Shown: positions 19,243 to 59,588 of the stretch, piece by piece
How the letters are laid out: each line of letters opens with the position of its first letter
Position numbering within the stretch: the first letter of the stretch is position 1
Program-made: the position numbers and the translations under genes
DNA from: a virus
Taxonomy: Duplodnaviria; Caudoviricetes
Reading direction: 5' to 3' (one strand)
IMG/VR virus record: IMGVR_UViG_3300027974_001530
Length of the DNA stretch: 64,000 nt
Notes under the pieces: model-generated
Told to the model about the DNA's origin: nothing
What the model saw: only the letters and a program-made list of their open reading frames with translations
Database searches by the model: none

Positions 19243-19263
19243 ATTTCATTATATTTATTAATA

Positions 19264-19770
19264 ATGAAAACATTAAATGTTCTTAAAAATTTAATTTTAG
19301 AAAATAGAGGTAAGTACCATAGGTTATTTACTTCTCCTGAAGGAGTTAAATTTATTTCAACAACTCATCAAACAGAAGATAGAAAGAGTAATTTAAGTTA
19401 TGATGAAATAAAAGACATAATTCTAACTGCGATTAGTTCCAATATTAATATACATACACGAGTTGGTGTCCCTAACCTTATGATTTCAAAATTAATAAGA
19501 GACAAATATAGAAAAATACTTAATGAATTTTCATTAAACCCGGAAGAGAAAAAAATAAAATTTGTACACAAAAGAAATAATAATGAAGATGAGGAGGTTT
19601 TTGACTACATTGAATTTATCCTTGCTCGTGGCGAAGATAATACTTTTTTAGTGGTGTCAAGTACTTTTTCCGATAATGGTAATTATTTAAAACTTTACGG
19701 TAGAGATGTTGTCCAAGCAAGAAAAGTTATAATAGAAAAGTATTTTCATTTAAGAACCGTGTTATTATAA
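19264..19770 (+). CDS. Hypothetical protein, putatively head-associated
   Basis: LILE leader; TATTTAT at 19252-19258. Confidence 0.75.
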   Translation: MKTLNVLKNLILENRGKYHRLFTSPEGVKFISTTHQTEDRKSNLSYDEIKDIILTAISSNINIHTRVGVPNLMISKLIRDKYRKILNEFSLNPEEKKIKFVHKRNNNEDEEVFDYIEFILARGEDNTFLVVSSTFSDNGNYLKLYGRDVVQARKVIIEKYFHLRTVLL

Positions 19771-19777
19771 TTAATTT

Positions 19778-19936
19778 ATGGAAAAGAAAGAAGCAACTAA
19801 AGTCACAGGATGTCGTAAATGTAATAAAGGACAAGAAAATTTACAAATGTTTTTAGTAATCTCAGGTGGATTATTATTTTCTTTGGCAATTTACGGAGCC
19901 GTTAGATTGGTTCAAGACATCGTATCTTGGTTTTAA
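19778..19936 (+). CDS. 52-aa CxxC single-pass membrane protein (not in the ORF track)
   Basis: MEKKEATKVTGCRKCNKGQENLQMFLVISGGLLFSLAIYGAVRLVQDIVSWF*. Confidence 0.75.
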   Translation: MEKKEATKVTGCRKCNKGQENLQMFLVISGGLLFSLAIYGAVRLVQDIVSWF

Positions 19937-39330: not shown

Positions 39331-40953
39331 ATGACTTGTGTTTTACTTGGAACGTTTTCCTACTCATCAACTAGTCCTGAATTACTTTGTGACGAAATTA
39401 AAACTATATCAATTTATGGTGATGATTTAAACTTGGGATCCTTAATCTATTCAGATTCCTTATGTACAGTGTTGGTAAATAATGGATTTTATTCTGACGG
39501 GATTAATACATATACAGTTGGTGAAACAAGTGACAGGGGAACCATAGAAACCATAGAACCTTGTGCCGAATGTAATACAGAATACTGTATCTCAGGTACA
39601 GACACGTATGACGATAACTATACGTTTAATGGATCTTATAACGGTTTCCCATATTATACAGGACAAAGTGGGAGTTATTTGATTTACTATTCGACAGGCG
39701 AGACTTGTTGGTGCGTTTCTTCCGTATTAGATGGCCCTTGTGAACTTTTTGGTAAATCGCCTTGTCTTAGTAATTGTCCTGATTTATGTGAAACATTTTT
39801 TACTGAAGGATATTGTGTTGTAAGTACAACAACAACATATAATAGTTGTGACATAATTGATTTTGAGGCATTATTTAATTGTGATGTCACTCCAACTCCA
39901 ACTGTTACTCCAACATCAACACCAACACCAACCCCTACAGTAACTCCAACACCATCTAATGTGTGTAATAGTTTAAATTTTGTCGCAACAGGTATAACAT
40001 ATACCCCAACACCCACACCAACACCTAGCGACACACCAAGTCCAACTCCAACACCAACAATAGATTGTTTGGTTTCAGGTTTAGTTACATTTAATATTAT
40101 TGATGATTACATAAGATGTTCAAATAGTAAGAAATTTAGAGATTGTTTTACAGGAACTGAATATTTTAGTGCCGATCTAATTCTTATAAATGGTGAAATC
40201 CCTATACAAGGTTATGTTTATAAAACAATAATTAATGATGAATCTATTTGTGCAACTTTCTTAGGTTTAGTGGATAACATAAGTGGTGTTGATAAAATAG
40301 AATTAGTGTCAGAACTTGGTCCTGAAAATGAAGGTAAGTGTTTGGATTGTATTCCGAGTCCTTCAAATACCCCAACACCTACACCGACATCAACCCCAAC
40401 ACCTACACCGACAACTCCGGTTGGTTGTATTGAGTGTTCATCAATAACTAACTTACCTCAAGTCGGTAATTCAATTACGGTTAATGGTATAACAATTACA
40501 GGTAATGGAACAGGTACCATAGAAGAAGGAATACTTGGTGGTTTCTTGGGTTGGTGTCTTACGGGTCCTTTAATACAAAACGGGTTTTTATATTTAGGTA
40601 ATGGTGTTTTACCTGTGAATTACCCATTCTCATATACTTTAACATTTAGTCAACCCGTAAATAATATAAGTTTAAGAATAAATGGTTATAATTATTTAAG
40701 TCCAACAAATTATGAAACCTTTGCGTTTACGACAAATTCAGGTAACCCATCTATTTCAAGTTGTAGTTATTGTTGCGCTAAAATTAATAGTAATAACATA
40801 GAGGCATCTCCTTGTCCTCAAACATCCCCTCAAGGTAATATTGGTTCAGGTATATTCACCTTTACAACTTTGACACCATACACAACTCTTACAATAACAG
40901 GTAATGGAGCTGCAAATTGTGGAGGTACTGTTTTTGATTTATGTGATTTTTAA
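39331..40953 (+). CDS. Cys-rich, Pro-Thr-repeat structural (fibre-like) protein
   Basis: Three (TP)n tracts separating Cys-rich domains. Confidence 0.75.
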   Translation: MTCVLLGTFSYSSTSPELLCDEIKTISIYGDDLNLGSLIYSDSLCTVLVNNGFYSDGINTYTVGETSDRGTIETIEPCAECNTEYCISGTDTYDDNYTFNGSYNGFPYYTGQSGSYLIYYSTGETCWCVSSVLDGPCELFGKSPCLSNCPDLCETFFTEGYCVVSTTTTYNSCDIIDFEALFNCDVTPTPTVTPTSTPTPTPTVTPTPSNVCNSLNFVATGITYTPTPTPTPSDTPSPTPTPTIDCLVSGLVTFNIIDDYIRCSNSKKFRDCFTGTEYFSADLILINGEIPIQGYVYKTIINDESICATFLGLVDNISGVDKIELVSELGPENEGKCLDCIPSPSNTPTPTPTSTPTPTPTTPVGCIECSSITNLPQVGNSITVNGITITGNGTGTIEEGILGGFLGWCLTGPLIQNGFLYLGNGVLPVNYPFSYTLTFSQPVNNISLRINGYNYLSPTNYETFAFTTNSGNPSISSCSYCCAKINSNNIEASPCPQTSPQGNIGSGIFTFTTLTPYTTLTITGNGAANCGGTVFDLCDF

Positions 40954-40965
40954 CTTTTATGATAA

Positions 40966-40995
40966 AAAAAAATACCATCTAAAAAGATGATATTT
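40966..40995. terminator. Probable terminator between convergent genes
   Basis: AAATACCATCT/AGATGATATTT imperfect inverted repeat. Confidence 0.5.
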
Positions 40996-41020
40996 AAAAT
41001 TATTAGTATTTTAATAGATA

Positions 41021-41620
41021 TTATTTCCAAATTTCTTTTGATTTCATATATCCAAGAACACAAGCATATGCGTCAGTTTGATCAAAGTTTTCTTTTTTAA
41101 GGGTATTGTTTCTTGTGTATAGCCATTTTATTTGTGGTTCTCTTTTTGCAACTTTTTCCCATATCAACATCTTCTTATCAACGTCTTTTGGTAATCCTCC
41201 AAATAAAACATATTTACCTTTATCATTTTCTTTAACCAACTCAGGAAAAGCAAATTTCCTTGAATTGTATGTTGATATAAATTCGGGTACTATATTTAGA
41301 GTTTCATATATTTCTTTAAATATAAAACTGTTAAATCTTAATAAAGTTTGTACTGTATACACATTATTAGAGTTCATTAACGGTTCTTCAATAATAACAC
41401 TAACAACCCCTAAATTTTTATATTGTATTAACTTTTCTCTAAAAATCTCACACTTAAGTAATAATTCTTTTAACTTTTCGTCCTCTTTCATTTTTGGTCT
41501 TGGCGACACATGTGTTAACTCCAACAATTGTTGTGATTGAATGTCAAATAACGCCCATCCTATTGTCTTAGTTGATATATCTAAACCAAGGACCTTTGGT
41601 GAATTTTTTATTTTTGCCAT
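41021..41620 (-). CDS. RuvC-like Holliday junction resolvase
   Basis: LGLDISTKTIGWA, IIEEP and D..DAYAC motifs. Confidence 0.8.
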   Translation of the reverse strand: MAKIKNSPKVLGLDISTKTIGWALFDIQSQQLLELTHVSPRPKMKEDEKLKELLLKCEIFREKLIQYKNLGVVSVIIEEPLMNSNNVYTVQTLLRFNSFIFKEIYETLNIVPEFISTYNSRKFAFPELVKENDKGKYVLFGGLPKDVDKKMLIWEKVAKREPQIKWLYTRNNTLKKENFDQTDAYACVLGYMKSKEIWK

Positions 41621-41666
41621 AAAGTGTTTTTATTATAAAATAAATTAAACTTTAAAAAATTAAAGT

Positions 41667-44372
41667 TTAAAAATCTATTTTAACTAAGTACTGTTGGATT
41701 CCCTGTCTTAAAACAGGTGATTGTAATTTAGACATAACTAATATATCTTTATCTTCATCTAACAATGCAATTTCGGTTATATAAGATTTTGTACCTTGTT
41801 TCCAAGTTGGGTTTGTTGTATTTTGGAACTCGGTAAAATTTAAATTAATTTTATATTTCATCTCATATATTGTTGCCATAATATCAGACTCAAAAGACCC
41901 ATAAAAATAGTATTCATCACCAAAATTTAAATCAGGTACATCATTACCAATTTTTGTTAAATTAATGTAATTACCTAAATCATAATATGGTGCTTTATCA
42001 TATTGATCTTTAGTTATAACAAATGTATTATTTGTTAATGTGTCTTGGGTTACTATACCTCCTAAATCACTCGTATAATCAATTACTCTCCAATTTGATG
42101 GGTCAGGTCTTTGACCTGTTACCACTTTTTGACAAATTATTTGGAAGTATTCCGCAAAATAACCTTTTGTGATGTCACAAGTTTGTGGACATATTGTTGT
42201 TGTGGTGGTGATTGGGTAATAAGTAGTGGTTGTACTTGTGATTGGATAATAAGTGGTACTTGTAGTTGTGATTGGATAATAAGTTGTAGTTGTTGTTGTT
42301 ATTGGATTTTCCCCCAAACAATTAAACTCTCTTCCAAATCTTACCGCCACGTTTTGTGAAACATTAGGACTACAATCATTATTATTACCGACTAATTTAA
42401 CATAGTAATTACAATGTAGTGAATTAGTACTACATGTTTTATTTGTAAATCTATAAGTTACATACATAGTTTCTCCATTACCTGTAAGAACCCCATCAGC
42501 ATTTAAAGATGCTTGTCCACAAGTGTTAGGGGTTATTAACGATAGTTGTGGTGCTGGTAATGTAAAGTTTCTATTTGACTTGTAAGACATTGCAGCAATT
42601 ACCTCTTCATCATCAATAATAATTAATTTACTATCAGGGAATACTTTACCAATTCTATTAGGTAGTCCATTTTTATTTTTATTGTTATCCCAAAGATGAT
42701 AATATCTAATTCCAGGATTATTCATATCATCATTTTTAGTTGTTTGTACATATCTCACTTGGAATAGTCCCTTACCTTCAAATTCTGGAGGATCTACCCA
42801 AAACGTTTGTCCAAAACAACAATCGGGATTTTTATGCCACATTAACCATGGTATATGTAGTCTAAAATTTCTTGCTTGACCTGTAGTATCATCAAGATTT
42901 GACGGATCATAAGGTTCTAACGCAAATTTTTCACCATAGAAGAAATCTATGGTTTGATTAGTGTAGTGTATAATTGCAATCGCTTTTTGTTCTTCAGGTT
43001 CAACATCAACAACTTCACCTAAAGAGTTATAATAGAATGTATCTGTTGTCTCAGCACTTAAAGTGTTATTAATAAAAAATGTCTGACCTGAATTTGAATT
43101 GTACCCAAAGTATTCTTTAGACCCGATATAATCTACAGATCCAAAATATTCATACCCTTCATATTTTGTTGGTACTAAACCAGCAGGATTTTCAGTCCAT
43201 GGAATGTTCATATTCCAAATTTTTACATCAAACTGATCGGTATCACATATTGATTCAAAATCAATAACTTGTTCACCCCAATGTGGGTTTGGTGTTAGAC
43301 TATCATATATAGATGTCATGTTTGGCGGATAAATTAAAGTTCTCGCATAACAATGACTAATAACGGTACCGCAAAAATCAGGTGTATTTCTATCTAATGT
43401 TATTATATCTTCACAAACATCAACAATTCTATATGTTAATATCTGATAACAAGAGTTCATAGAGACCACACAATTAGGTGGTGGTGGTGCCGGACACAAT
43501 CTACTAGGTGTAGGTGTCAAACATGGTGTTTTAGTTGGCGTAGGTGTAGGTGTTGGCGACTCACAAGGATTATAATTTTTAGTAACACTTGGTGTCGGTG
43601 TCGGTGTTGGTGTTTGAGATGATGTCGGTGTAGGTGTTAATGCCGGAACGTCTTGACAATCTCCCCATACCAAGAAATCTCCATCTTCTGTTGTTAAAAA
43701 TTCAGATAATTCTGTCATTAATATACATGTCTCTGAAATTGGCATTTGAGATGATGTGGGTGTTGGTGTGAGTGTTGGGGTTACGCTTGGGGTTGGTGTT
43801 GGTAAATTAATACAACTACAGTCATACTCTCCAAAACCATCATAATAAATTGTTATAATATCACCTATAGATGGTTTATTTAAATTCGTATAGTTACATC
43901 CAGAATATATTATTTGTACTTTATTTGACCCACTTAATGTGGACATATCTATAACATAATTAGAACTAACAACATACTGATCATTAGTTAATGCACTCCA
44001 AACTATTGTGTCGGCGGTGGTATTACCCGTAAAAAAACCTCTTAATGGGGCTCTATTATAAACAGGTTCAACAACAGAGTCCATATATGGTATACCATAT
44101 GTTGATCCACTAGATCCATCAACATAATAAGGATATTTAATACTTTGTCTATTTGATTCAGGTACTCCCGCAGAGTTTTGTGTATTGAACGCAGGTTCTA
44201 ACACAAATAAATTATTGTAATTATAATTTGATGGTAATTTATCGTACGACACTTCACTATCCCCTACTTGGAAATACGCAATCTTAAAACTACCCTGTGA
44301 TAATTTTTTTCTACCTGTGTCAGTAACTCTAGTGTTAACTAACCCTGATGTATTTTTAATTATATATGCCAT
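41667..44372 (-). CDS. Baseplate/tail-associated structural protein with PT and TTTYYPI repeats
   Basis: C-terminal YITEIALLDEDKDILVMSKLQSPV resembles a tail-collar/baseplate end; (TP)n tracts; TATTTAT at 44386-44380. Confidence 0.65.
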   Translation of the reverse strand: MAYIIKNTSGLVNTRVTDTGRKKLSQGSFKIAYFQVGDSEVSYDKLPSNYNYNNLFVLEPAFNTQNSAGVPESNRQSIKYPYYVDGSSGSTYGIPYMDSVVEPVYNRAPLRGFFTGNTTADTIVWSALTNDQYVVSSNYVIDMSTLSGSNKVQIIYSGCNYTNLNKPSIGDIITIYYDGFGEYDCSCINLPTPTPSVTPTLTPTPTSSQMPISETCILMTELSEFLTTEDGDFLVWGDCQDVPALTPTPTSSQTPTPTPTPSVTKNYNPCESPTPTPTPTKTPCLTPTPSRLCPAPPPPNCVVSMNSCYQILTYRIVDVCEDIITLDRNTPDFCGTVISHCYARTLIYPPNMTSIYDSLTPNPHWGEQVIDFESICDTDQFDVKIWNMNIPWTENPAGLVPTKYEGYEYFGSVDYIGSKEYFGYNSNSGQTFFINNTLSAETTDTFYYNSLGEVVDVEPEEQKAIAIIHYTNQTIDFFYGEKFALEPYDPSNLDDTTGQARNFRLHIPWLMWHKNPDCCFGQTFWVDPPEFEGKGLFQVRYVQTTKNDDMNNPGIRYYHLWDNNKNKNGLPNRIGKVFPDSKLIIIDDEEVIAAMSYKSNRNFTLPAPQLSLITPNTCGQASLNADGVLTGNGETMYVTYRFTNKTCSTNSLHCNYYVKLVGNNNDCSPNVSQNVAVRFGREFNCLGENPITTTTTTYYPITTTSTTYYPITSTTTTYYPITTTTTICPQTCDITKGYFAEYFQIICQKVVTGQRPDPSNWRVIDYTSDLGGIVTQDTLTNNTFVITKDQYDKAPYYDLGNYINLTKIGNDVPDLNFGDEYYFYGSFESDIMATIYEMKYKINLNFTEFQNTTNPTWKQGTKSYITEIALLDEDKDILVMSKLQSPVLRQGIQQYLVKIDF

Positions 44373-44400
44373 TTAAATTATAAATATTAAATAACTTTTT

Positions 44401-45405
44401 TTATTTGTTAAAAACTACCTTCGTAACATTACAACAATTGCAATTAATTACTTGTAAATTTTTTAAAGTTAATGTCAAATCTTGACTACCATTATAACAT
44501 AAAGTTTTAACGTCAATATTTGGACTAATACTACTCATAATATATCCTATTAACGTGTCCCCACTTTCAATGGTTAAATTTTGCCATTCTTTTATTTTAA
44601 TTATTCTATAATTACTACCAATACATGGTCTTTGTAAGTTAGTAACTTGGGTGTTTTCACTAAAATTTGTGTATTCACTTATATCTCTATTATTAATATA
44701 GACTTGTTCGGTATAATTTTGTATAACAGAATTTACTTCTGGTCCATAATTTAAAACATTTTGATAAACAAGATCAAATTTTAATTTTATATTATTTGTT
44801 AATTCAGGATTACAAACAACACTAAATTCTCCATTAGTTTTATTATAATTTAATGTAACAAAATATTGTGTAGATTTATTTTTTGGTATTATAACTTCCT
44901 TAATTGTTTCCGATTCTTTACTATCAACAACTTTAACAACATATTTACCTTCACATAGATTTTCAATTATGTTTCCAAGTTGTTTTTTATCATTTAAAAA
45001 ATATTTAAAAGGTCCTATCCCACTAAAAGTATCAATGATTAAAGATCCGTCACATTTACAAGAACTGTTTTTTATGTTAACACTATAATCAACTATCACA
45101 TTATTAACGCAATCTCCTGTTGTAATTCTAATATTTTTTATTTGTTTAGGTGGTCTTGATCCCAAAATCTGCCATCCAGATAATGGAACATCATTTGTGG
45201 TATATGTGAAAATAAAAGTATTTTCAACCCCACTTAATACCCATTGGTTTGTATCTCCCGTATACCAAAATATGGTATATCCATTAGAATTAACCCAACT
45301 ATTTTTTCCATTAACTTCATTTGATGGTTCAAAAGCGTAAGTCTCAACTTTTCTAACGTTATTCTCCAATACTTCAGATAAAAGACATAATTCCATACTA
45401 TTCAT
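44401..45405 (-). CDS. Structural protein with an SprB-like repeat
   Basis: SCKCDGSL...GIGPFKY...NLCEGKYVVKVVDS. Confidence 0.7.
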   Translation of the reverse strand: MNSMELCLLSEVLENNVRKVETYAFEPSNEVNGKNSWVNSNGYTIFWYTGDTNQWVLSGVENTFIFTYTTNDVPLSGWQILGSRPPKQIKNIRITTGDCVNNVIVDYSVNIKNSSCKCDGSLIIDTFSGIGPFKYFLNDKKQLGNIIENLCEGKYVVKVVDSKESETIKEVIIPKNKSTQYFVTLNYNKTNGEFSVVCNPELTNNIKLKFDLVYQNVLNYGPEVNSVIQNYTEQVYINNRDISEYTNFSENTQVTNLQRPCIGSNYRIIKIKEWQNLTIESGDTLIGYIMSSISPNIDVKTLCYNGSQDLTLTLKNLQVINCNCCNVTKVVFNK

Positions 45406-45406
45406 A

Positions 45407-46462
45407 TTATACGCAATGACCTAAAGTAGATTCGTTTATTCCGTATATTACAGATGGATTATTAATCCAATTTTCGGTGATAGTACTATTAGGATAATCA
45501 GAAGAATTACTCAAATATGAATAATAAGACCCTGAAGGTCCTGCCGTTGGGTTAAATATTTGCCAAAACTCCCATCTATTATCAACATCATCCCAAAATA
45601 CGTATCCAATTAATGATGGTGGGAATGTTGAAGGATTATATACTCCATAGTAAAACTTATTATTATACGTTCCTGCAACATAAGCATTACTTGTAATTAT
45701 TATAGGTGTTGTCCCATTTTTAACCACAGTAAAACACATATCTGTTGGCGGATAACTACATAAACCATATGATGTTAACATATATGTAACTCTTTCACTA
45801 ACCCAATCAACTGTGTTATCAACAGGGAAACTATTTGTTGATGGTAAATACGCAAGTAGTAACCCTCCACCTAAAACTAAAGTCATTTCCCATCTATTTA
45901 ACGTTGAGTTCCACCAAACGTAAGCATTTCCTCCAACACCAACTAAAGTATAATAGTACTTACCATTATAAAGTCCTGTTGATGGTATTGTTGTATATAT
46001 TGGGCCCAAAAATTCATATTCAGTTGTAAAACAAATGATTGGTTCTGGAGTTGCCGATGGTGTTAGACTAGGTATCGGTGTTGCCGTTGGTGTTAAAGTA
46101 GGTGTAGGCGTAATGGTAGGTGTCGGTGTAGGTGTTGGTGTTCCTGTTGGTGTGGGCGTTGGTAATGCCGTAGCACTTAAAATACATGTTGTATTAACAA
46201 TAAAATCACCATAAGAATCTGTTATTGTAACAGGGTATTCTCCAACCCCTAAATTTGTAATTGCTGGAGCTATATTTCCGTTTTCCCAAGAAATTGTATA
46301 TGGTGGTGTTCCTCCCGTAACTCCAACCGCAATAGATCCATTAAAAGTTGTAACATTTGTTGGTTCTTTACTGAAGCATTTAGCCCCCATAGGAAATATT
46401 GTGAGAACGTCACATTCATTTCTTGGTTCAATACTTGGTTTTGGTCTATCAGGTGATGCCAC
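45407..46462 (-). CDS. Structural protein with an SprB repeat, a PT stalk and two NGK-YY/RWE modules (GTG start)
   Basis: NGSIAVGVTGGTPPYTISWENG...LGVGEYPVTITDS; TATTTAT at 46483-46477. Confidence 0.75.
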   Translation of the reverse strand: MASPDRPKPSIEPRNECDVLTIFPMGAKCFSKEPTNVTTFNGSIAVGVTGGTPPYTISWENGNIAPAITNLGVGEYPVTITDSYGDFIVNTTCILSATALPTPTPTGTPTPTPTPTITPTPTLTPTATPIPSLTPSATPEPIICFTTEYEFLGPIYTTIPSTGLYNGKYYYTLVGVGGNAYVWWNSTLNRWEMTLVLGGGLLLAYLPSTNSFPVDNTVDWVSERVTYMLTSYGLCSYPPTDMCFTVVKNGTTPIIITSNAYVAGTYNNKFYYGVYNPSTFPPSLIGYVFWDDVDNRWEFWQIFNPTAGPSGSYYSYLSNSSDYPNSTITENWINNPSVIYGINESTLGHCV

Positions 46463-46486
46463 TTTCTTTTTTATTTATAAATACAA

Positions 46487-47464
46487 TTATTTGTCGTTTT
46501 CAATGAAAGATTTCATAACTTCTATATATTTGATCGTTGAATTATTAACTTCAACATAATCAAAATGATTAGGGTTATTCCTTAATTTTTCAATTGGGTC
46601 TACATTTATATACTCGCCCTTGTAAAACTTAATTCTTTTAAGATTGTCAGTTACTCCGGCCATGTGTAGTATTGGTTTTTTTTCGTACACTTGTATTGGG
46701 TCTGTTGCCCAAGAAAAATCTAACTCTTTTGTTATTTTTGTGTCGTTACCGTTTAACCAAAGATTCCAAAGTAATGACCACATCTCTGCAGTCCAAAATT
46801 GGATCTCTCCTGGATTTATTGGGAATCTTTTTTGATAATCTAACATTTGGTTATACAAAGGAGTACAATCGGTATATATTTTTTTCCACAGATTATGATC
46901 TGTATTTTTGATTAGGTACTGTCCTCCTCCTGAATTTTCTTGATTACATTTAACACAATCAACACTAACTCCAATAACATCAACCATTTCTTGTAATAAT
47001 TGACCTTTTTCAGATGTTGGGTGGTTTTTTTCATATCTATTACAACAATCCATAATATAATTGTAACCTATGTAACCAATTGTGTCTGAAAGATATGTTA
47101 TATCATCATCTAATAATAAATTAAAATTAGGTAAATAATTAAATATAATATCGGCATCGTGTAGAAAAAATAACTTACCAAATTCAGGATATTCCTCTAA
47201 CCATTTAGAGATTAGGTAAGGTTTAACGCTTGGTATATACGTTTTTACGTCTCTATTATCCTCATAAAAATGAATGTTTATTCCAAAATCTTTTAATTTT
47301 AAGGCATCTTCAGTCGGGGTTTTAGCTCCGTGTACCATGGCAAAAATTACGTGAATTTGGTTTGGGTCAATTCCTTTTTCTATAAAATTGTGAACATAAA
47401 GTTTAATTTGCCAATGAAAATATGGAACATCGGGTTGTGCGGTTACAAATACAATATCTTTCAT
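46487..47464 (-). CDS. GT-A glycosyltransferase resembling peptidyl-Ser galactosyl / Hyp arabinosyltransferases (GT96/GT95-like)
   Basis: PYFHWQ, YIPSVKPYLISKWL, LHDADIIF (DxD), SGGGQYL, WTAEMWS and ILHMAG motifs. Confidence 0.75.
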   Translation of the reverse strand: MKDIVFVTAQPDVPYFHWQIKLYVHNFIEKGIDPNQIHVIFAMVHGAKTPTEDALKLKDFGINIHFYEDNRDVKTYIPSVKPYLISKWLEEYPEFGKLFFLHDADIIFNYLPNFNLLLDDDITYLSDTIGYIGYNYIMDCCNRYEKNHPTSEKGQLLQEMVDVIGVSVDCVKCNQENSGGGQYLIKNTDHNLWKKIYTDCTPLYNQMLDYQKRFPINPGEIQFWTAEMWSLLWNLWLNGNDTKITKELDFSWATDPIQVYEKKPILHMAGVTDNLKRIKFYKGEYINVDPIEKLRNNPNHFDYVEVNNSTIKYIEVMKSFIENDK

Positions 47465-47499
47465 ATTGAAAATATATTCGTAAAAGTAAAAAAGTGAAT

Positions 47500-49458
47500 T
47501 TAATAAATTTTGTTTAACGTGAATATCTCTGAATATATTGAGTTTCCTGCGTTATTAGTATTCCATTCAGCAGTGACAAGAAGTGTATTAGATATTGTAG
47601 TATCAAAAGTTGTGTTGTTTACAATACTGAAATTTACTCCTTCAAAGTCAAGTCCTCCATTTTTAGTGTATGAAAACAATCCCCCTGATGCTATAGAACC
47701 TACACTTGCAACTCCTAATTGTCTAATAGTGAAGTTCACATCTAGTTTCCAATGTTTATTAGTGGTGGCATTCATTGCCATTACCCCTGTTTCCGCTAAT
47801 AATACACCCGAATCCGTTTTAATTCTAATATGTAAAGTGGCAGAACCCACACAAGATAGATGCCCTATTAACACTCCATGAAAACCATCACCCACACTAA
47901 ACCCATTTGCGGGAATTATAATAGATCCTACTCCCCCACTTATTAATGTAGTCTCAACAGTTGTTGCACTTACTGCAACGCTGGTTCCTGTTTGAGAAAA
48001 TAAACCATATACCGTTGGTCCAGGAATTGTTTTAACTTTAACTTCACCCGTTGATCCGTCTCTTGTTAAATAATTTAGGGTTGTTCCCGTATCTGTTGTT
48101 GGTGTTGATGATATGTTTAATGTTGTTGCCGTAAGTCCACTTGATATAATAGTATTACCACTTACGTGTAGTTTTTTTGATGGTGTGGTTGTCCCAATAC
48201 CAACGTTACCTGTACTAGTGATATTTATTACACCAGATGATGGTGCAGACGTTCCAATACCACCTATTGACATAGTACCACCAGAAGGGGTATTAATCCA
48301 AAAAGATGTACCTAATCCATATTGTAATCTTAAACCGGTATTAGTATTACCTGACCCCCATATAAATTGATTACCATCTACTATGGACACTTTTTCACCG
48401 GGGTTTGTTATTCCAATACCAACACGACCAATTGAGTCAATTACAAATGGTGTTGAATCAGGGTTGGTGCTATCTTCTACTAAGAATGAGTTACCGGCAT
48501 TTAAATTATTTATGTGAAGTTTAGCAGTTGGTGATGTTATACCAATACCCACATCACCTGATGAAGAGATAACCATTCTAGGTGTACTGTTTGGTCTAAA
48601 TGATATACTATTACTTCCTAGAGTTCCTATAATAAACTCATTACCTGCGTTAAATAACTCATTATTATCTATACCAATACCGTTATTAATTGTACCAACT
48701 AATAATGTTGAACCTGATAAACTAGTACCACCAATTGTTGATGATCCACTAATAGCGATTTGTAATCGTTGAGTAGGGTTTGAATTACCAATACCCACAT
48801 TACCAGATGATGATATATACATTCTAGGGTTAAATTCAGTACCGAATATAAGTTTTCCACCAGAAACTTGATTAAAAACATTTAAATTAGTACTACCAGA
48901 TGTTTCATACCCAATAAAACCAAATCTACCGGCTGATATCCCTTGTGGGTAATATTCTTGATATACATGATCAATACCTTCATATCTAACAGAATTAGCG
49001 TTACCACTGATCTGTAGGGCAACTGCTGGTGTAGGTGTTCCAATACCAACACGACCAATTGAGTCAATTACAAATGGTGTTGAATCAGGGTTTGTATCAT
49101 CCTCTACTAAGAATGTATTACCTGATGTTGTGTTGTTTATATGAAGTTTTGCTGTTGGATTTGCAATCCCAACCCCTAATCTATTATTTGCTAAATCAAT
49201 GGTAACCGCACTTGTAGACCCAAAATAAACATTTCCTTCATCTAAAGGGTTTATGTTAAGAGGTGAACAAGAATGGATGTTAGAAACGTATAAATCGGTA
49301 ATACAATAACCTGTTATTGAGTCGAAAACTTGTGATATTTTAGCCTTATAGGAAGATCCCGCCGGGTTTCCTTGTGATGTGTCACCTGTTATAACAATAT
49401 GAATTAAATCATTTAATGTTACTCCTGTCGCTAAAGATCTGTCTGTTAAAAATGCCAT
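47500..49458 (-). CDS. Tail fibre-like protein
   Basis: Repeated G(N/R)VGIG...P..KLH units and a C-terminal beta domain; TATTTAT at 49479-49473. Confidence 0.8.
   Translation of the reverse strand: MAFLTDRSLATGVTLNDLIHIVITGDTSQGNPAGSSYKAKISQVFDSITGYCITDLYVSNIHSCSPLNINPLDEGNVYFGSTSAVTIDLANNRLGVGIANPTAKLHINNTTSGNTFLVEDDTNPDSTPFVIDSIGRVGIGTPTPAVALQISGNANSVRYEGIDHVYQEYYPQGISAGRFGFIGYETSGSTNLNVFNQVSGGKLIFGTEFNPRMYISSSGNVGIGNSNPTQRLQIAISGSSTIGGTSLSGSTLLVGTINNGIGIDNNELFNAGNEFIIGTLGSNSISFRPNSTPRMVISSSGDVGIGITSPTAKLHINNLNAGNSFLVEDSTNPDSTPFVIDSIGRVGIGITNPGEKVSIVDGNQFIWGSGNTNTGLRLQYGLGTSFWINTPSGGTMSIGGIGTSAPSSGVINITSTGNVGIGTTTPSKKLHVSGNTIISSGLTATTLNISSTPTTDTGTTLNYLTRDGSTGEVKVKTIPGPTVYGLFSQTGTSVAVSATTVETTLISGGVGSIIIPANGFSVGDGFHGVLIGHLSCVGSATLHIRIKTDSGVLLAETGVMAMNATTNKHWKLDVNFTIRQLGVASVGSIASGGLFSYTKNGGLDFEGVNFSIVNNTTFDTTISNTLLVTAEWNTNNAGNSIYSEIFTLNKIY
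48411..49092. repeat. 55-bp exact direct repeat within the tail fibre gene (48411-48465 and 49038-49092)
   Basis: ttccaataccaacacgaccaattgagtcaattacaaatggtgttgaatcagggtt occurs twice, 627 bp apart. Confidence 0.9.
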
Positions 49459-49481
49459 TTAAGTTTTTTTTAATAAATATT

Positions 49482-49790
49482 TTAAGTTTGGAAATCATAT
49501 TCCTCGTTATCCATAAAATAAAAGTCGTCTCCGTCTTGAAATTGTTTTATTGTAAGAGATTGTTGTGTACAATCAACTATTTTAAATATTTCACAACCTA
49601 ACGAGTCAATTAGTTTTATACCAACCGCAGGTGCGGTGTTAAATTGTGATGGTATTGTTAATACTATTGTTGGTGGTTGTGGTGGTAACACATTTGCAAC
49701 CAAAACACATTGATTACCATAGACATCACAAACAAACACATTATATGATGTGAAAATAAAACTTGTTGTTTGTATCTGTATCTGTGCCAT
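49482..49790 (-). CDS. Small Cys-containing structural protein (paralog of 39114-39329)
   Basis: YNVFVCDVYGNQC...GIKLIDSLGC. Confidence 0.75.
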   Translation of the reverse strand: MAQIQIQTTSFIFTSYNVFVCDVYGNQCVLVANVLPPQPPTIVLTIPSQFNTAPAVGIKLIDSLGCEIFKIVDCTQQSLTIKQFQDGDDFYFMDNEEYDFQT

Positions 49791-51982
49791 TATATAAAAT
49801 AAGTTGGGTCTATTATGTTTGGTACTCCTCCAATGTTTTCGTAAATTTTAAATAGGGTTGTTACGTACTGTGAGGGATATGTTGCGGTATCATATGTCCA
49901 TATTTCAAAGTCACCACTTAAACTTGTTATTCTAAATTGATAACAAACCATTGTCCAACTATATGTTCCAAGATTTTTAGTTGGTGTGTAGTTATAAAAA
50001 TAAAAATTAGATAGGTCACATGTTTCGGCACTTAAAGATGGTATTGTCGTTAGTGGTGATCCGGAATATGGGATTGTTTGAATAACATATTTTGGGATCT
50101 CCACAGAAGCGGTCACAGTAGTTGAGGAAAAAGTATTAGTAGATGAGTTTAGTAATCTAAAACGGTAAAACGGATTATCTACTTTTGATCCAGTATTGGT
50201 TATAATTGATATATTATTTGTTACTGCCGTTGAGGAATTGTTTATAAAATCACATATCCCATTTGTATAACCACTACAATTAATGTCACAACTTCCCCAC
50301 GTTAAAGAATTTGAGATTGTTGGCATTGTAATTGACATTGTCCAAGGACCGGTCCCTCCTGTTGTTACTACTGAAGATGGGTGAATGTAGTATTCTTGGA
50401 ATCCAGTTATATCCCCACATTGTTGTGTGCCTGAAGCTAATGGTATTCTAAGATTAAAAAATCTATAATAATCAATATCTAATGGGTTTGTTGGGTTTCC
50501 CGAATAAGAAGTATAAAAATTATCCCAACTAAAGTTATAATGTTCTAAATCAGAATATGTATTAAATGTCATGACAATTAAACCCTCACCAAGAACCACA
50601 GATTTATCATATGTAATTGTATTTGTATTTGGAACATCACAAGTCGGGGTAAATATATTAAAGAATGGGTTTCCACATGTAGTTATTGGGTTATAATATA
50701 AAATTGACGTGTTTAAATCATATGGTACTGTATCATAAATAAACCCATTTATACTTCCATTATATGACGTACCGTCAATAAATCCATTATCGGTATTTAG
50801 ATATCTAAAAATATTACTATCGTTACATCCCGAAATTTTAAATCCATAATAATACCCATCACATGGTTGTGAAATTTTATTTATGGTAGATTCGACAATT
50901 CTAATTGGGGGTATTAATGTATCGTAACACAATTCACAATCAAAAGTCTCTAAACACTCACACAGTAATCCCCAATTTGTGTTATTATTTAAAGGGTTAG
51001 GGGTTATTTCTATTTCTAAATAATCCCCACTATTTACAGTAATTCCTGTTAAACATAAAACTTTTGGGAAAAGCGTATATGTTGTTAGGTTTTTTATAGT
51101 TTTTGGGGTAACTAATGGACTAAAATTTGTTTCTGATTGGTTCATCCCCATACTAATATACTCCAAAACTATAGGGACAGAATAATTAGACCCAAAAAAA
51201 GTAATTTTTAAGTCATCATAAATTTGTTGTCCCTTAAATGAATAAGCAAAATATGGCTTTAATGGATCCAAAGCAAATGTTGTCACAACAGGTTGTGGTG
51301 TTATACTTGTGGTGGCACTAAAACTAAACCCGTGAGAATAATAAGGACTTGTTGATCCAGGTCCGTTATCACAAGTTAACGCATCTACATTAACTGTAGT
51401 AGAGTTAAAACAATTAAGGTCCGTATATTCCGTTCCATTTAATTTAATTTTTTGTATTACAGGAGTATAAACTCCGGCAACTATAGGAACTTCGCTTGAT
51501 CCTGTTAATGGGTGTGTATATAAATAATCACCAACATAATCCGTCCCATATCCTGACGTGAAAGCAACTGTTGTACTTACAATTCCAGGTCCGTACCATT
51601 CAATGACGTAATCAGTTACACTAGGATCACAACTTGCGGTAATTATTCCCACTGAAATTACTCCTATTGGGTTTGTATCATAAAAATCAAATCCAATATC
51701 ACAACTAACACATAATGGATTAATGGTTGTTGTTGATGTTGTCGATGTTGATGTCGTGGTCGTTCCTTGGAACGTTTGACAATATTCACAATTTGCTGCG
51801 TCTATAATTTTAACACCAAAAGATGAATATCCACTATATGGTCCTGGAATTGTTATTGTTGCGGGGACAGAACTAATTGTATCAACTAAAGTACAATCTA
51901 TATCAGGACAATCTCTACATACATACACATCAACAGGATATGTTACTTGTGATATATTTGTTATATTAACTTCTAAAGGCAT
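49790..51982 (-). CDS. Cys-rich structural/fibre protein
   Basis: N-terminal PVDVYVC...VKIIDAANC module and a Thr/Ser stalk. Confidence 0.75.
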   Translation of the reverse strand: MPLEVNITNISQVTYPVDVYVCRDCPDIDCTLVDTISSVPATITIPGPYSGYSSFGVKIIDAANCEYCQTFQGTTTTSTSTTSTTTINPLCVSCDIGFDFYDTNPIGVISVGIITASCDPSVTDYVIEWYGPGIVSTTVAFTSGYGTDYVGDYLYTHPLTGSSEVPIVAGVYTPVIQKIKLNGTEYTDLNCFNSTTVNVDALTCDNGPGSTSPYYSHGFSFSATTSITPQPVVTTFALDPLKPYFAYSFKGQQIYDDLKITFFGSNYSVPIVLEYISMGMNQSETNFSPLVTPKTIKNLTTYTLFPKVLCLTGITVNSGDYLEIEITPNPLNNNTNWGLLCECLETFDCELCYDTLIPPIRIVESTINKISQPCDGYYYGFKISGCNDSNIFRYLNTDNGFIDGTSYNGSINGFIYDTVPYDLNTSILYYNPITTCGNPFFNIFTPTCDVPNTNTITYDKSVVLGEGLIVMTFNTYSDLEHYNFSWDNFYTSYSGNPTNPLDIDYYRFFNLRIPLASGTQQCGDITGFQEYYIHPSSVVTTGGTGPWTMSITMPTISNSLTWGSCDINCSGYTNGICDFINNSSTAVTNNISIITNTGSKVDNPFYRFRLLNSSTNTFSSTTVTASVEIPKYVIQTIPYSGSPLTTIPSLSAETCDLSNFYFYNYTPTKNLGTYSWTMVCYQFRITSLSGDFEIWTYDTATYPSQYVTTLFKIYENIGGVPNIIDPTYFI

Positions 51983-52009
51983 ATATTATATATGTTTAAT
52001 TTTATTTTT

Positions 52010-55000
52010 TTAAGGTATAAAACTTATTGTTTCACACGATGATATTTGAGATGCCCCCCCAAACGGTATTGTTGCGGTTTGTAAATATGTTAAAGTATAT
52101 GGTGAATTTTCATCTATTTGATAGACTTCTCCCCCATTATTTAATATATGTATTTTACCTGAGTCAGTGAATAAACCGTATGGGTTTAGTATGGTTGGGG
52201 ATATTAATTGGTCAAATTCTAATGTTCCTGTTGAGTAGTCATACTGTGAAATATATCTGTCAAACCCAATTTGGGTTGTTAATATTAATTTATTACTTGT
52301 TGTATAAATAAAATCCCCTGAAATTGTTCTACCCGCAGGTATATTAAATTTATTTGTTACTATGGGACTAACACCACTTATATCAATTTCTACCACAGTT
52401 TGAGGGGTACTAAAATTTGTAACTCCTGTTGTTGTGATAAGAGTAGTATCATCAATTGCGGTTAATCCAGCACCAATAGTGCAGTTACTAATAACAATAT
52501 TTCTATTGTAAGACCCACTAAATGGACTTAAAATTATGTCATATTCTGTTATTGCACTTGTGGATGCATAACTTAACCACATTTTATTTGAGGTATGTGC
52601 AATATCTCCAGGTCCAGCATCTAAAGTTCCACTTATAAATGGTGTTAATAATATATTAGTATTTGTTAATGGATAATAAACATATATACTATTGTCCAAA
52701 TAAAAAGATGTCATTATATCACATGTCAATAAATTTGGTGGTGTAGGAGGTATAGGGGATGGGGTTGGTGTAACAGGAGGCCCACAAACATCGGCAACAC
52801 AAGTATATAGAGATAAACTATAACCACCTGTACCACTATCTAATGTAGGTACGGTACTTGCACAAACATATGTTGTTGCGCCTCTTCCAACCCCAACTCC
52901 CTGAGGAATAGGTTTACAATCGGTATAACTAAATGTTGACCCAGTTGATGCCGAACCACCACTTAACTCATAACAATCACAAGGAAAGGCCGGAGTTTGG
53001 GTTGGTGTTGGTGTTACTGTTGGTGTTGGTGTTGGATTTAAACAGTTACCCAAGGTTGAGTCTTCTATTACACATCCAAAGGCAATCATAAGATCAGTAA
53101 CCCATGGATACGTTACATTACTTTCTGGAAAATATGATGGATTATCATTATGTTGTAAAATTATTGTTGGTGCCGAAATGTTAACATGTTCCCATCTGTT
53201 TGTTATATCATTCCAATATACAATACTGTTACAACTTGTTGTACAGTCTGATTGATAAATTATATAGTATGGTTTACCGTTTATTATACCAACAGGATTT
53301 AAACTACAATCCCAAGAAGGTAATACCATTAAGTCAGTATTTACGGTAAAACACATAATTGTTGCGGGAGTTGCGGTTGGGGTTAACGTTGGTGTAGGTG
53401 TAACGGTTGGTGTTGGCGTTAATGTGGGCCCCACTAATGTCATATCTGCATTAAACCCTAAACATTCAGGTGCCTTACCACAATCTTTACAAGAAATTAA
53501 ATATTCAATTAGTAAATTGATTTTAACGTTTGTATCCCCTAAATCATTAAAATTTGTTAACTGACAATCCTTAATTTTCTCATTACAGTTATTTGTGATT
53601 GTTATCTTATTTTTTCCAAGATCAATTATAACATCACCAATTTCAGGATATTCTTGTATTGTGTCTTTAAGACTTTGTATCCATATTGTGTCCGCATATT
53701 GAGCAAAACTACCACCTGTATATGTATAAAATAAATCTTCTTTTATAACCCCATCGATTTCTACTTGGGTTCTGAATGTCGCATTTACAATATAACAACC
53801 AATATCTCCTGATGTTAGATCAAAAAACCCTTCATTCATCATTTGTAGTATTCCTCTCTTACCATATATTCCGGTATTAACAAAATCATCAGAACATACT
53901 GTATATGAAGCATAACTAGTTGTTAATTCAGTACCATTTAATATTATTGTATCACTTTTTAAACAACCTTCACTATCTGTCACTAATACAGAGTAATTTC
54001 CATTTGATAACCCCGTTAAATGTAGTCCTGTTTGAGCCCCAACATTTGAACTCCAAACAATTGTGAAAGGTGGTACTCCACTTGTTATATTTAAATAAAT
54101 TTCACCGTCATTACCAATAGTTGGTTGTACACCAACTAAAGTAAAATCAACAGGTTGGGAATCTGCAATATAGAAATTTTCAGTTTGTGTACAGGTAGGT
54201 GATCCCGAATCTGTTACTGTTGCAACATAAAACCCAGAACTTAAATTGTTAAATACATTTGTTAATTGGGTTGTTGTTGTAACGGGTGTTCCTCCTGATA
54301 AATTATATGATAACGGTAATGTTCCTCCTGAAGTAGCGGTTATTATTGCGGTACCATTATTTAAACCACATGTTGTATCTGAATAACTTACTGATATTTC
54401 ATATTTATTTACATTTACAACAGTAAAATGTCCAGTATATATACATCCCGAATTATTAGGGACATCTTGTATTAATATTGTATAACTTCCACTTTCTAAA
54501 CCAAAAAAATCACAAATTGAGTTTGTGGTAGTTACGGTAGAATTTCCGTTGAAGTCATATAAAGTGTATTGGTAGTTTCCCGGAGATAGTCCATTATTTA
54601 ATTCTATGTGAACAGATCCATCACTTGAATTACAATTAGAGTTTGTTACTGACATTGTCGTAACAATAAAACCATTTGGTGTTAATAACGAAACGGAACT
54701 TATCACATTACAAAGTCCTGCATCTGTTACTGACACTGTAAATACTCCCGAAGATAAACCTGTAAAAGTATAGATATTACTATACTGTATTGTTATTTCA
54801 CCGTTTGAACCTGAAAAATAATAAGGTGCGGTTCCTCCTGAAACAATAACCTCAACCTCTCCATCATTTGAAAAACAAGAGGGTTGTATTGTTGTTAACA
54901 TTGCGGCAACTCCCAAATCAGGAACATCAGATAGTACAACACTTTTAGTTATCGTACATCCTTCAAAGTCGGTTATTGTAAGTGTGTAGGTTCCCAAAGT

Positions 55001-55681
55001 TAGTCCTGTAACTTCAGGGCCTGTTTGCGTTCCAACATTAGGACTCCAACTATACGTATAAGGCGGATTTCCTGTTAGACCTGTCACAAATATTTTTCCT
55101 GTACCATCAATAGGTACACAACTTGCATCATTTACAACATATAGACCAAAGTCCAAAGGACTTGTTTCTTTAATTAAACAAACTTCACTTCTTCCTGTAC
55201 ATCCACCACCATCATCACCGATCACATAATATAGTCCTGGTGAAAGATTTGTAAAAACATTACTTGTACTGTCACCACTTGTTATATACCCTAAAGTGTT
55301 TTCGTATAAATAAAACGATCCAACACCATAATAATTTGTTGTTGATGCGGTAATCGTACCATTATTTAGTCCACAAGTAGTCCCACTACTTTCTATAGAC
55401 ACACAGGTTCCTGAAGATATTGTAAATTCAACATATCTAGGAATAAAAGGTGGTTCTAAACAACTATCTATAATCTCTAAAATATAAGTATCAGGAGTTA
55501 GACCTGTAACAAAATAAGTTGTTGTATTTGATGATAGCGGTAATAAACCTGATGTTGATATCTCACTTACAGTATAATTTGGGGATCCTCCTGTAATAGA
55601 AAAGGAAACTCCCCCAAATCCTGAGTTTGTGCAGTCTCCACTTACACTATAATTATATATATTTATTGACCCACAACTCAT
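52010..55681 (-). CDS. Large fibre/adhesin-like structural protein with multiple SprB repeats, PT stalks and a possible C-terminal beta-propeller
   Basis: About six C..NDG.I.V..GG..PY.Y.W....L..G.Y.V.VTD..GC units plus (TP)n tracts. Confidence 0.8.
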   Translation of the reverse strand: MSCGSINIYNYSVSGDCTNSGFGGVSFSITGGSPNYTVSEISTSGLLPLSSNTTTYFVTGLTPDTYILEIIDSCLEPPFIPRYVEFTISSGTCVSIESSGTTCGLNNGTITASTTNYYGVGSFYLYENTLGYITSGDSTSNVFTNLSPGLYYVIGDDGGGCTGRSEVCLIKETSPLDFGLYVVNDASCVPIDGTGKIFVTGLTGNPPYTYSWSPNVGTQTGPEVTGLTLGTYTLTITDFEGCTITKSVVLSDVPDLGVAAMLTTIQPSCFSNDGEVEVIVSGGTAPYYFSGSNGEITIQYSNIYTFTGLSSGVFTVSVTDAGLCNVISSVSLLTPNGFIVTTMSVTNSNCNSSDGSVHIELNNGLSPGNYQYTLYDFNGNSTVTTTNSICDFFGLESGSYTILIQDVPNNSGCIYTGHFTVVNVNKYEISVSYSDTTCGLNNGTAIITATSGGTLPLSYNLSGGTPVTTTTQLTNVFNNLSSGFYVATVTDSGSPTCTQTENFYIADSQPVDFTLVGVQPTIGNDGEIYLNITSGVPPFTIVWSSNVGAQTGLHLTGLSNGNYSVLVTDSEGCLKSDTIILNGTELTTSYASYTVCSDDFVNTGIYGKRGILQMMNEGFFDLTSGDIGCYIVNATFRTQVEIDGVIKEDLFYTYTGGSFAQYADTIWIQSLKDTIQEYPEIGDVIIDLGKNKITITNNCNEKIKDCQLTNFNDLGDTNVKINLLIEYLISCKDCGKAPECLGFNADMTLVGPTLTPTPTVTPTPTLTPTATPATIMCFTVNTDLMVLPSWDCSLNPVGIINGKPYYIIYQSDCTTSCNSIVYWNDITNRWEHVNISAPTIILQHNDNPSYFPESNVTYPWVTDLMIAFGCVIEDSTLGNCLNPTPTPTVTPTPTQTPAFPCDCYELSGGSASTGSTFSYTDCKPIPQGVGVGRGATTYVCASTVPTLDSGTGGYSLSLYTCVADVCGPPVTPTPSPIPPTPPNLLTCDIMTSFYLDNSIYVYYPLTNTNILLTPFISGTLDAGPGDIAHTSNKMWLSYASTSAITEYDIILSPFSGSYNRNIVISNCTIGAGLTAIDDTTLITTTGVTNFSTPQTVVEIDISGVSPIVTNKFNIPAGRTISGDFIYTTSNKLILTTQIGFDRYISQYDYSTGTLEFDQLISPTILNPYGLFTDSGKIHILNNGGEVYQIDENSPYTLTYLQTATIPFGGASQISSCETISFIP

Positions 55682-58680: not shown

Positions 58681-59588
58681 TATTGTGTTATATTTGCAAA
58701 GTTTTTACTAAAATCTATGTTATCACCTCTATCTTGTTTTACTTCATATAAAAGTTCGTTATATTGATCTCTAATTTCAAATAAATTGTATTGTTTGTAA
58801 ATGTTATTCTGAGTATCGTAAAGTGTATAAATTCCATCATTAAGAGACTTAGTCTGATTACCAAACAAAGAAATTGCCAATGTGGAAATGTCGTGTTCAA
58901 CCATTTCAATCTCCATAGTAACAGGATTAAAGAATGTATTACTTATTATTATTTCTTGATCTGGTTGACCAATAAATGGTGTTGCGTTTGGTTTGTTAGA
59001 TGGTGATGAAGAAGGTGATAATGTACAAAATATTAAATTTGTAACCCCATTCACATATTGATATCTAACAGTGCTTGTTGAGGTGTTTGTGGTATTTTGG
59101 ACCACGGGTTCGCAGTAAAAAGATGAGGTAACTATTCTGAAAAAATTTGGTATTTTAGCCCCACTTGTCTGTAAGTATTCAACCCTATAACCAATTAAAC
59201 CTTGATTAACAAATTTATCTCTGAATGAAACGGGAACGTTACTTATATCTATTACTATCCCTTTTATGTTTGGTAGTGCTGCCAATATACCACAATCAGT
59301 TATTCTAGTTCTAATTTCTGCGGGTCTTATATATAATGTATAAATCCCTAATTGATTAAAAATATTTGATGGTAGTCTTAAATTATATAGTCCACCTAAG
59401 ATTTCTACACCTGAATTACCTCCAGTATTTGTGTTGTGAAAATAAGGGGTCAAAACCGCAGAAGAATTTAATTTTGTCAACTGAAAGTTGTTTGTAACGT
59501 CTCTTGACTCCGTATAATTTAATATAATATCAACGTCAGTTGGACTTACGTCCGCCGGTCTTATTGTTCCATATGTTCCTGTTGCCAT
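58680..59588 (-). CDS. Structural (tail/baseplate region) protein
   Basis: 302-aa ORF; TATTTAT at 59616-59610. Confidence 0.7.
   Translation of the reverse strand: MATGTYGTIRPADVSPTDVDIILNYTESRDVTNNFQLTKLNSSAVLTPYFHNTNTGGNSGVEILGGLYNLRLPSNIFNQLGIYTLYIRPAEIRTRITDCGILAALPNIKGIVIDISNVPVSFRDKFVNQGLIGYRVEYLQTSGAKIPNFFRIVTSSFYCEPVVQNTTNTSTSTVRYQYVNGVTNLIFCTLSPSSSPSNKPNATPFIGQPDQEIIISNTFFNPVTMEIEMVEHDISTLAISLFGNQTKSLNDGIYTLYDTQNNIYKQYNLFEIRDQYNELLYEVKQDRGDNIDFSKNFANITQ

Follow-up and report, generated by a model that had tools for sequence, protein, structure and literature searches.

A phage glycosyltransferase family distantly related to plant HPAT/SGT1 enzymes is linked to threonine-rich tracts on neighbouring structural proteins

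The 64,000-nucleotide (nt) stretch of DNA analysed here (the window) comes from a tailed phage of the Caudoviricetes, IMG/VR record IMGVR_UViG_3300027974_001530, and carries on its minus strand, at positions 46487-47464, an open reading frame (ORF) of 325 amino acids (aa) encoding a predicted glycosyltransferase (GT). We consider it likely, from sequence comparison and structural modelling, that this enzyme O-glycosylates Thr residues within Thr-rich tracts of the phage's own virion proteins. Established by the comparisons are the enzyme's fold, its conserved catalytic motifs, its remote homology to the plant HPAT/SGT1 enzymes and a tight coupling between enzyme and Thr tracts that is seen both across and within lineages.

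The ORF first described at this position is genuine: it starts with ATG, lies within a long run of minus-strand genes with gaps of 24-35 nt on both sides, and matches over its full length (E 2.4e-68; residues 6-319 on profile positions 3-290 of 293) PHROG 4417, a phage protein family annotated as function unknown. Four motifs picked out in the preliminary description are all present in the order given, YFHWQ at residues 15-19, YIPSVKPYLISKWL at 76-89, LHDADII at 101-107 and WTAEMW at 224-229, although the spacing of the second is Y-x4-KP-x5-WL and not x6 as had been reported. Across an alignment of 50 homologues (30-89% identical), residues W18, Y76, D103, D105 and H267 are invariant. The AlphaFold model of the enzyme, with a predicted local distance difference test (pLDDT) score of 97.4 and a predicted template modelling (pTM) score of 0.94, has a single-domain GT-A layout in which the DxD motif (D103/D105) follows the fourth strand. 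It lacks a membrane segment, is folded from residue 5 through to its C-terminus and shows neither a hydrophobic anchor nor a signal sequence. The best explanation of these features is a soluble, cytoplasmic, metal-dependent GT-A glycosyltransferase.

Fold comparison bears out the resemblance to GT96 and GT95 enzymes noted when the sequence was first described. In a Foldseek search of Swiss-Prot models, Arabidopsis SERGT1 (GT96) ranked first (E 1e-10, template modelling (TM) score 0.63), followed by seven HPAT-type entries, among them HPAT1-3, RDN1/2, PLENTY and NOD3, at TM 0.60-0.65, while the Chlamydomonas SGT1 model gave TM 0.56. GT8 enzymes and UGGT scored lower among the same models (TM 0.42-0.48), and the best 50 matches among solved structures in the PDB were retaining GT-A enzymes such as WbbM, glycogenin, blood-group transferases and UGGT (TM 0.36-0.47). 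GT8, GT6 and UGGT structures appear among those 50 matches and DNA glucosyltransferases do not, and neither of the two classes named at the outset as unfavourable outcomes, DNA glucosyltransferases and GT8 enzymes, provides the best match; the GT8 model PF01501 likewise gave no Pfam match to the enzyme, with GT8 folds at TM 0.36-0.48 overall falling below GT95/96. Among AlphaFold DB clusters the enzyme's own family came first and proteins with an HPAT-like domain next. The top cluster match (41% identity, TM 0.94) is unnamed and has no organism given, and from its accession prefix we take it to be, presumably, a giant-virus metagenome entry.

Profile comparison places the family in the same neighbourhood. 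We assembled bacterial proteins above the Pfam HPAT (PF23452) threshold, expanded to 40 sequences, many of which carry the Joint Genome Institute (JGI) name peptidyl serine alpha-galactosyltransferase, and aligned this set with the 50 homologues of the phage enzyme using hhalign. The two profiles matched with 90% probability (E 1.6e-6, 248 columns) in a register that aligns all motifs, including the DxD and His, and the invariant W, Y, D and H residues of the HPAT-positive set fall on W18, Y76, D103, D105 and H267 of the enzyme. When the 50 family members were scanned with PF23452, only one matched (E 0.38); as a lead only, 10-58% of the members of the nearest ESM Atlas clusters carry PF23452. 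Searches of Pfam, NCBIfam and PDB sequences with the single protein and with the 50-sequence profile returned nothing informative, and the region had no megablast match in the phage collection. The enzyme family is therefore a distant branch of the HPAT/SGT1 (GT95/GT96) superfamily, and because it falls below the Pfam HPAT threshold we regard it as a distant relative of HPAT/SGT1 and not as a member of GT95 or GT96. The family is large, with 832 clusters at 50% identity in an exhaustive search and 1160 matches among 90%-identity clusters, and many of its clusters are multidomain, fused to GT2, GT6, GlcNAc-transferase (PF11397) or O-fucosyltransferase domains. In a Candidatus Microthrix metagenome-assembled genome (MAG), a protein that passes the Pfam HPAT threshold and a 1012-aa multidomain homologue of the enzyme are encoded about 4 kb apart.

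A check of co-occurrence between the enzyme and Thr-tract genes, suggested in the preliminary description, came out in favour of the proposed link, as the enzyme tracks such tracts across both phage and bacterial lineages. Homologues at 32-40% identity were found by tblastn in 77 phage records, and we examined eight isolate phages chosen by enzyme homology only: VPE25, 1706, phiFL2B, R3.3, phiCTP1, Bacchae, vB-SscS-F1 and Chryseobacterium phage MA9V-3. All eight carry poly-Thr tails or tracts on proteins neighbouring the enzyme, and in six of the eight these proteins are annotated as capsid, tail-tube, portal or protease, those of Bacchae and MA9V-3 being unannotated. Poly-Thr is found on the tail tube in VPE25, on both capsid and tail tube in 1706, phiFL2B and R3.3, on the portal and a small head protein in phiCTP1, on the protease and tail proteins in vB-SscS-F1, on three small neighbours of the enzyme in the myophage Bacchae, and on the products of two upstream genes in MA9V-3. 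In the siphophages of Gram-positive hosts the enzyme gene sits inside the head-tail gene module, adjoining the tail-tube gene in 1706, phiFL2B, phiCTP1 and vB-SscS-F1 and the capsid gene in VPE25 and R3.3. In GenBank the homologue in phage 1706, orf14, is listed as 'unknown' amid neighbours recorded as structural proteins, which fits an enzyme rather than a virion component.

The enzyme homologue of phiFL2B, gp49 (6995-7903 of its locus stretch), is labelled 'major tail protein' in GenBank, and with gp48 just upstream appearing to be the true tail-tube gene, this label is probably a misannotation. In Staphylococcus phage vB-SscS-F1 the major tail protein is annotated in two pieces with an 888-nt ORF between them (6767-8469 of its locus stretch), and the split may reflect an intron or the insertion of a homing endonuclease. 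A tail protein of phage phiEf11 is reported to run at 28-30 kDa against 21.5 kDa predicted (PMC5221750); we considered this gel anomaly as possible support and rejected it, as the first 22 kb of that genome, which holds the structural genes, contains neither the enzyme nor poly-Thr tails.

The coupling also holds where closely related phages differ in the presence of the enzyme. Among 30 loci with a phiFL2B-like capsid gene, poly-Thr is present on the capsid and tail tube in 12 of 12 enzyme carriers and in none of 18 non-carriers (p 1e-8), and nine of these 18 non-carrier capsids are 80-88% identical and still without poly-Thr. The capsid core ends in the same residues throughout, with poly-Thr appended in carriers only. 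Within the lineage of the window phage, Thr/Pro tracts lie within 10 kb of the enzyme in 79 of 80 related loci, and the gene directly downstream of the enzyme is tract-bearing in 56 of the 80. One 99%-complete relative has 12 tract-bearing ORFs in 291 kb, five of which lie within 8 kb of its single enzyme gene. The nearest related record spans 92 kb, 32% of its genome, and relatives at 93-100% completeness measure 274-318 kb, indicating that the window phage is a jumbo phage. One relative encodes a few kb from the enzyme a 1750-aa protein (15182-20434, minus strand, of its locus stretch) in which about 718 residues form a Thr/Ser/Pro tract.

Bacterial genomes give a similar picture. For 80 loci chosen by the enzyme alone, comprising 40 single-domain and 40 multidomain chromosomal homologues, a strong poly-Thr tract occurred within 3 kb of 31 of the single-domain enzymes and of none of the multidomain ones (p 4e-14), mostly on the adjacent gene. 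We also ran the test in reverse, scanning viral contigs blind for (ACN)10 and using a single control set of poly-Ser/acidic loci, identified by (TCN)10 and its reverse complement (GAN)10. The enzyme was present in 8 of 76 poly-Thr-coding loci and in 0 of 117 control loci (p 5e-4), or in 8 of 45 against 0 of 34 when whole records were counted, and in all eight loci it directly adjoins the poly-Thr gene. These eight enzymes are 27-64% identical to one another and their tract-bearing partners are proteins of different kinds, meaning that a single module of shared ancestry cannot explain the pattern.

Returning to the window, the preliminary description placed the enzyme among tail-fibre-like and structural genes with Thr/Pro stalks, and the neighbourhood holds up on inspection: a gene matching tail-fibre PHROGs lies upstream, and Thr/Pro-rich tracts, either (TP)n or poly-Thr, are found in six genes within 39331-55681, with only one weak tract elsewhere in the window among ORFs of at least 80 aa. 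Directly upstream of the enzyme is a 652-aa tail-fibre-like protein (47500-49458, minus strand; PHROG 18345, E 4e-17, and PHROG 9942) with a weak Thr-rich tract at residues 450-460. Directly downstream is a 351-aa SprB-repeat protein (45407-46462, minus strand) with a 30-aa (TP)n linker at residues 100-129, a candidate acceptor, as may also be a 901-aa structural-type protein (41667-44372, minus strand) with three (TP)n tracts at residues 191-284 and a T-rich YYPITTT repeat at 691-727. The other candidate acceptors are a 540-aa Cys-rich protein (39331-40953, plus strand) with (TP)n tracts at residues 186-210, 222-244 and 344-365, whose orthologue is present with its tract in relatives; a 730-aa protein (49790-51982, minus strand) with a poly-Thr/Ser tract at residues 72-89; and a 1223-aa protein (52010-55681, minus strand) with four SprB stretches by Pfam and (TP)n linkers at residues 752-772, 882-897 and 968-982. 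A 115-aa Gly-Val-repeat ORF at 39687-40034 on the minus strand was discarded as a gene, being the antisense of the (TP)n tracts of the 39331-40953 protein.

SprB repeats (Pfam PF13573) are thus found in two fibre-like neighbours, 45407-46462 and 52010-55681. SprB is a gliding-adhesin repeat of Bacteroidota, and its presence here indicates a Bacteroidota host; its occurrence in phage fibre-like proteins suggests host-surface mimicry or a host-acquired domain. Also lying amid the structural-type genes with Thr/Pro tracts is a 199-aa RuvC-like Holliday-junction resolvase (41021-41620, minus strand; PHROG 159 and 827).

The 35-nt spacer upstream of the enzyme (47465-47500, minus strand) contains AATTCACTTT at 47491-47500 followed by ATATATTTT, a candidate promoter or regulatory element. 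In many relatives AATTCACTTT and, about 12 nt on, ATAT(A/C)TTTT are kept just upstream of the enzyme orthologue, and in a few a ATATTTATAAA-type motif stands in place of AATTCACTTT; this conservation suggests gene-specific regulation of the enzyme. A different motif, ATATTTATWAA, has eight matches in the window against 1.8 expected, with sites at 6604, 18127, 19251, 28589, 34399, 49470 and 59607, shortly before several gene starts, among them those of the fibre gene 47500-49458 and the gene 58680-59588, and is likely a phage promoter motif. The enzyme had been credited with a promoter-like element of its own in place of this late-type motif. This holds in part. ATATTTATWAA is missing from its 35-nt spacer and the conserved AATTCACTTT/ATATATTTT element is there; AATTCACTTT shows no enrichment elsewhere in the window, and we therefore claim no promoter class for it.

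Taken together, we envisage that late in infection the enzyme would take a nucleotide sugar and attach the sugar to the hydroxyl of Thr, possibly also of Ser, within disordered Thr-rich tracts on the phage's own particle proteins. In the window phage it would act on the fibre-like proteins encoded nearby, at their (TP)n linkers and poly-Thr runs, and in siphophages that infect Gram-positive hosts on capsid, tail-tube and portal proteins, at their poly-Thr tails; the virion would thereby acquire a mucin-like brush of sugars. That catalysis takes place on protein, with Thr as acceptor and a sugar as the group transferred, and that the phage benefits, for which rigidity, protease protection or mimicry has been proposed, we infer from the comparisons above. 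A retaining mechanism is suggested by analogy with the nearest families only. The relatives encode 6-7 GT2 genes elsewhere in their genomes, and, speculatively, their products could extend the glycan. As for the acceptor, Thr or Ser had been favoured over hydroxyproline in the preliminary description, and the wider comparison sides with that choice: the prolyl hydroxylase domain PF13640 gave no match in three relatives that are 93-100% complete, nor in the nearest related record, and Thr is the sole residue common to all tracts, those of the Gram-positive carriers being almost pure poly-Thr. The lack of PF13640 in these genomes and the near-purity of the Gram-positive tracts together favour Thr.

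A number of points weigh against glycosylation of Thr tracts as the role of this family. The case for it rests on structure prediction and comparative genomics. PF23452 gives no match to the enzyme itself and no close solved structure was found in the PDB fold search (best TM 0.47); the donor sugar and acceptor are not readable from homology. Nine of the 40 single-domain bacterial homologues have no nearby poly-Thr; four of the nine are on contigs shorter than 3.5 kb, and the other five loci belong to two Pedobacter genomes (three loci), a Flavobacteriaceae MAG and a delta-proteobacterial MAG. The multidomain chromosomal homologues, from Chitinophaga, Mucilaginibacter and others, are without such tracts, which implies that the family is not restricted to a Thr-tract role. 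Conversely, 68 of the 76 viral poly-Thr loci have no copy of the enzyme in the stretch examined, and the linkage of genes within structural modules could partly reflect shared inheritance. In the window itself the tracts are mostly (TP)n, with pure poly-Thr clearest in other lineages, and (TP)n sequences are common as unglycosylated linkers in Bacteroidota proteins.

Prophage glycosyltransferases often modify glycans of the host envelope, and many homologues of this enzyme lie in Bacillota prophages, which raises the alternative that the enzyme alters a host cell-envelope glycan (teichoic acid, capsule, O-antigen or cell-wall polysaccharide) to block superinfection or change a receptor, with the Thr tracts as unrelated linkers. 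The multidomain chromosomal homologues fused to GT2, GT6 and GlcNAc-transferase domains do resemble polysaccharide builders, and the further 6-7 GT2 genes of the window phage's relatives would fit such a role, but the enzyme is soluble with no membrane segment, sits in late structural operons even in strictly lytic and jumbo phages, and would leave unexplained both the 12/12 versus 0/18 co-variation with poly-Thr and the direct adjacency in the blind scan; we judge this alternative to be unlikely. A lower probability still attaches to the idea that the enzyme serves as a chaperone or scaffold in the assembly of tagged virion proteins, binding their Thr-rich tails but adding no sugar, or that it transfers a group other than a sugar. 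Co-occurrence by itself speaks for a functional link and not for a chemistry, but in GT-A enzymes the DxD and His bind metal and nucleotide sugar, both are invariant over the 50 homologues and aligned with the HPAT-family residues, and the fusion partners within the family are other glycosyltransferases.

Two more alternatives accept the chemistry and change the substrate, and we regard each as very improbable. True HPAT-like action, in which a prolyl hydroxylase would first convert Pro of the (TP)n tracts to the hydroxyproline that serves as acceptor, would suit the place of HPATs among the closest fold relatives and the half-Pro composition of the window tracts; it is at odds with the lack of PF13640 in the relatives noted above and with the tracts of the Gram-positive carriers, which contain little or no Pro and leave Thr alone as the common residue. 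Glycosylation of modified bases in phage DNA (hydroxymethyl-cytosine or hydroxymethyl-uracil) for restriction evasion is the best-known role of phage glycosyltransferases, and the relatives do encode a protein of the thymidylate-synthase family. This is, however, the only such gene in the relatives and by its score a true thymidylate synthase (TIGR03284, 299 bits where the cut-off is 108); the glycosyltransferase is moreover common in temperate phages of 36-40 kb, adjoining capsid and tail genes, and DNA glucosyltransferases are missing from the best 50 PDB fold matches. In the nearest related record the thymidylate synthase (1486-2601 of its stretch, 371 aa) is matched by the family models in two or three separate pieces, and this suggests an insertion of considerable size.

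Glycosylation of Thr tracts on virion proteins would have consequences beyond the window phage. We lean, somewhat beyond even odds, towards the broader view that a poly-Thr/(TP)n tag and an HPAT/SGT-like transferase form a widespread and so far unrecognised two-part module by which phages of Bacillota and Bacteroidota, including jumbo phages of 270-320 kb, cover their capsids, tails and fibres in a mucin-like brush of glycans. Our literature search found no report of this enzyme family, of a phage or bacterial GT95/96 branch or of poly-Thr tags in phages, and as far as the literature searched shows, virion glycosylation has been demonstrated only in mycobacteriophages. Ten other phages gave no glycoprotein staining (PMC12894461), the enzyme status of those ten not being established here. 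If true, our proposal would give a concrete function to PHROG 4417, a large family of unknown function, and would extend virion glycosylation to phages of enterococci, lactic acid bacteria, staphylococci, clostridia, listeria and Bacteroidota, with enzyme plus Thr tag serving as a genome signature for predicting glycosylated virions. A glycan coat can alter how antibodies recognise a particle, how well it resists proteases, how it adheres and how stable it is, and is thus of relevance to phage therapy and dairy phage control. Cultured carriers such as phiFL1A, VPE25, 1706 and Lactobacillus casei phages offer tractable test systems. On the side of enzyme evolution, the plant enzymes that glycosylate extensins become linked to a prokaryotic and viral superfamily. 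HPATs have been described as plant-specific (PMC4738400); were the two-part module real, GT95 and GT96 would be part of a far older superfamily that also branches into bacteria and viruses.

Among known systems, the plant and algal SGT1/SERGT1 (GT96) and HPAT/RDN/PLENTY (GT95; PF23452) enzymes are the closest in structure, giving the best fold matches outside the enzyme's own family (TM 0.56-0.65) with the aromatic-x-WQ, Y..P..L..WL, DxD, W.(A/S)(D/E)MW and His motifs aligned. They are also alike in proposed role, as they initiate O-glycosylation on repetitive, Pro-rich, extended protein stalks, adding arabinofuranose to hydroxyproline or galactose to Ser in extensin-type motifs. They differ in sequence, with 11-16% identity to the phage enzyme, which has no PF23452 match; in location, being anchored in the Golgi membrane and acting on secretory proteins, whereas the phage enzyme is predicted to be soluble and cytoplasmic; and in acceptor, Ser or hydroxyproline there and probably Thr here. 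GT95 itself has been described as related to GT96 (PMC8012813). The GT8 enzymes (glycogenin, galactinol synthase and LgtC-type) and UGGT (GT24) share the GT-A fold, the DxD and the C-terminal His and include the nearest solved structures, and glycogenin also glycosylates a protein hydroxyl, but their TM scores (0.36-0.48, against 0.60-0.65 for GT95/96) and the lack of a Pfam GT8 match set them further away.

Other comparisons concern biology more than structure. In the serine-rich-repeat adhesin system of Gram-positive bacteria, GtfA/GtfB and accessory transferases are soluble enzymes that densely O-glycosylate long, disordered Ser/Thr-rich repeats in the cytoplasm, much as proposed for the phage enzyme, although their substrates are exported adhesins and not virion proteins, and the GtfA/GtfB families are not known to be related to it. 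Giant viruses (chloroviruses and mimiviruses) likewise decorate their capsids or fibrils with transferases of their own, with enzymes, linkages and hosts that differ from those considered here. The nearest parallel among phages comes from the mycobacteriophages Che8, Corndog and Myrna, in which, according to the account of Freeman et al. 2023 given in PMC12619734, phage-encoded glycosyltransferases go together with glycans reported on the C-terminal ends of the capsid and tail-tube subunits. None of the 77 phage records in which tblastn found a homologue belongs to a Mycobacterium phage, implying that our enzyme family differs from the mycobacteriophage enzymes, and the tracts in the window are internal linkers of fibre-like proteins. 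The carriers described here infect Bacillota and Bacteroidota, and their putative acceptor is a recognisable poly-Thr/(TP)n tract. As far as that account goes, however, capsid and tail tube are the same two proteins that bear C-terminal poly-Thr tails, the predicted sites of glycosylation, in Gram-positive carriers.

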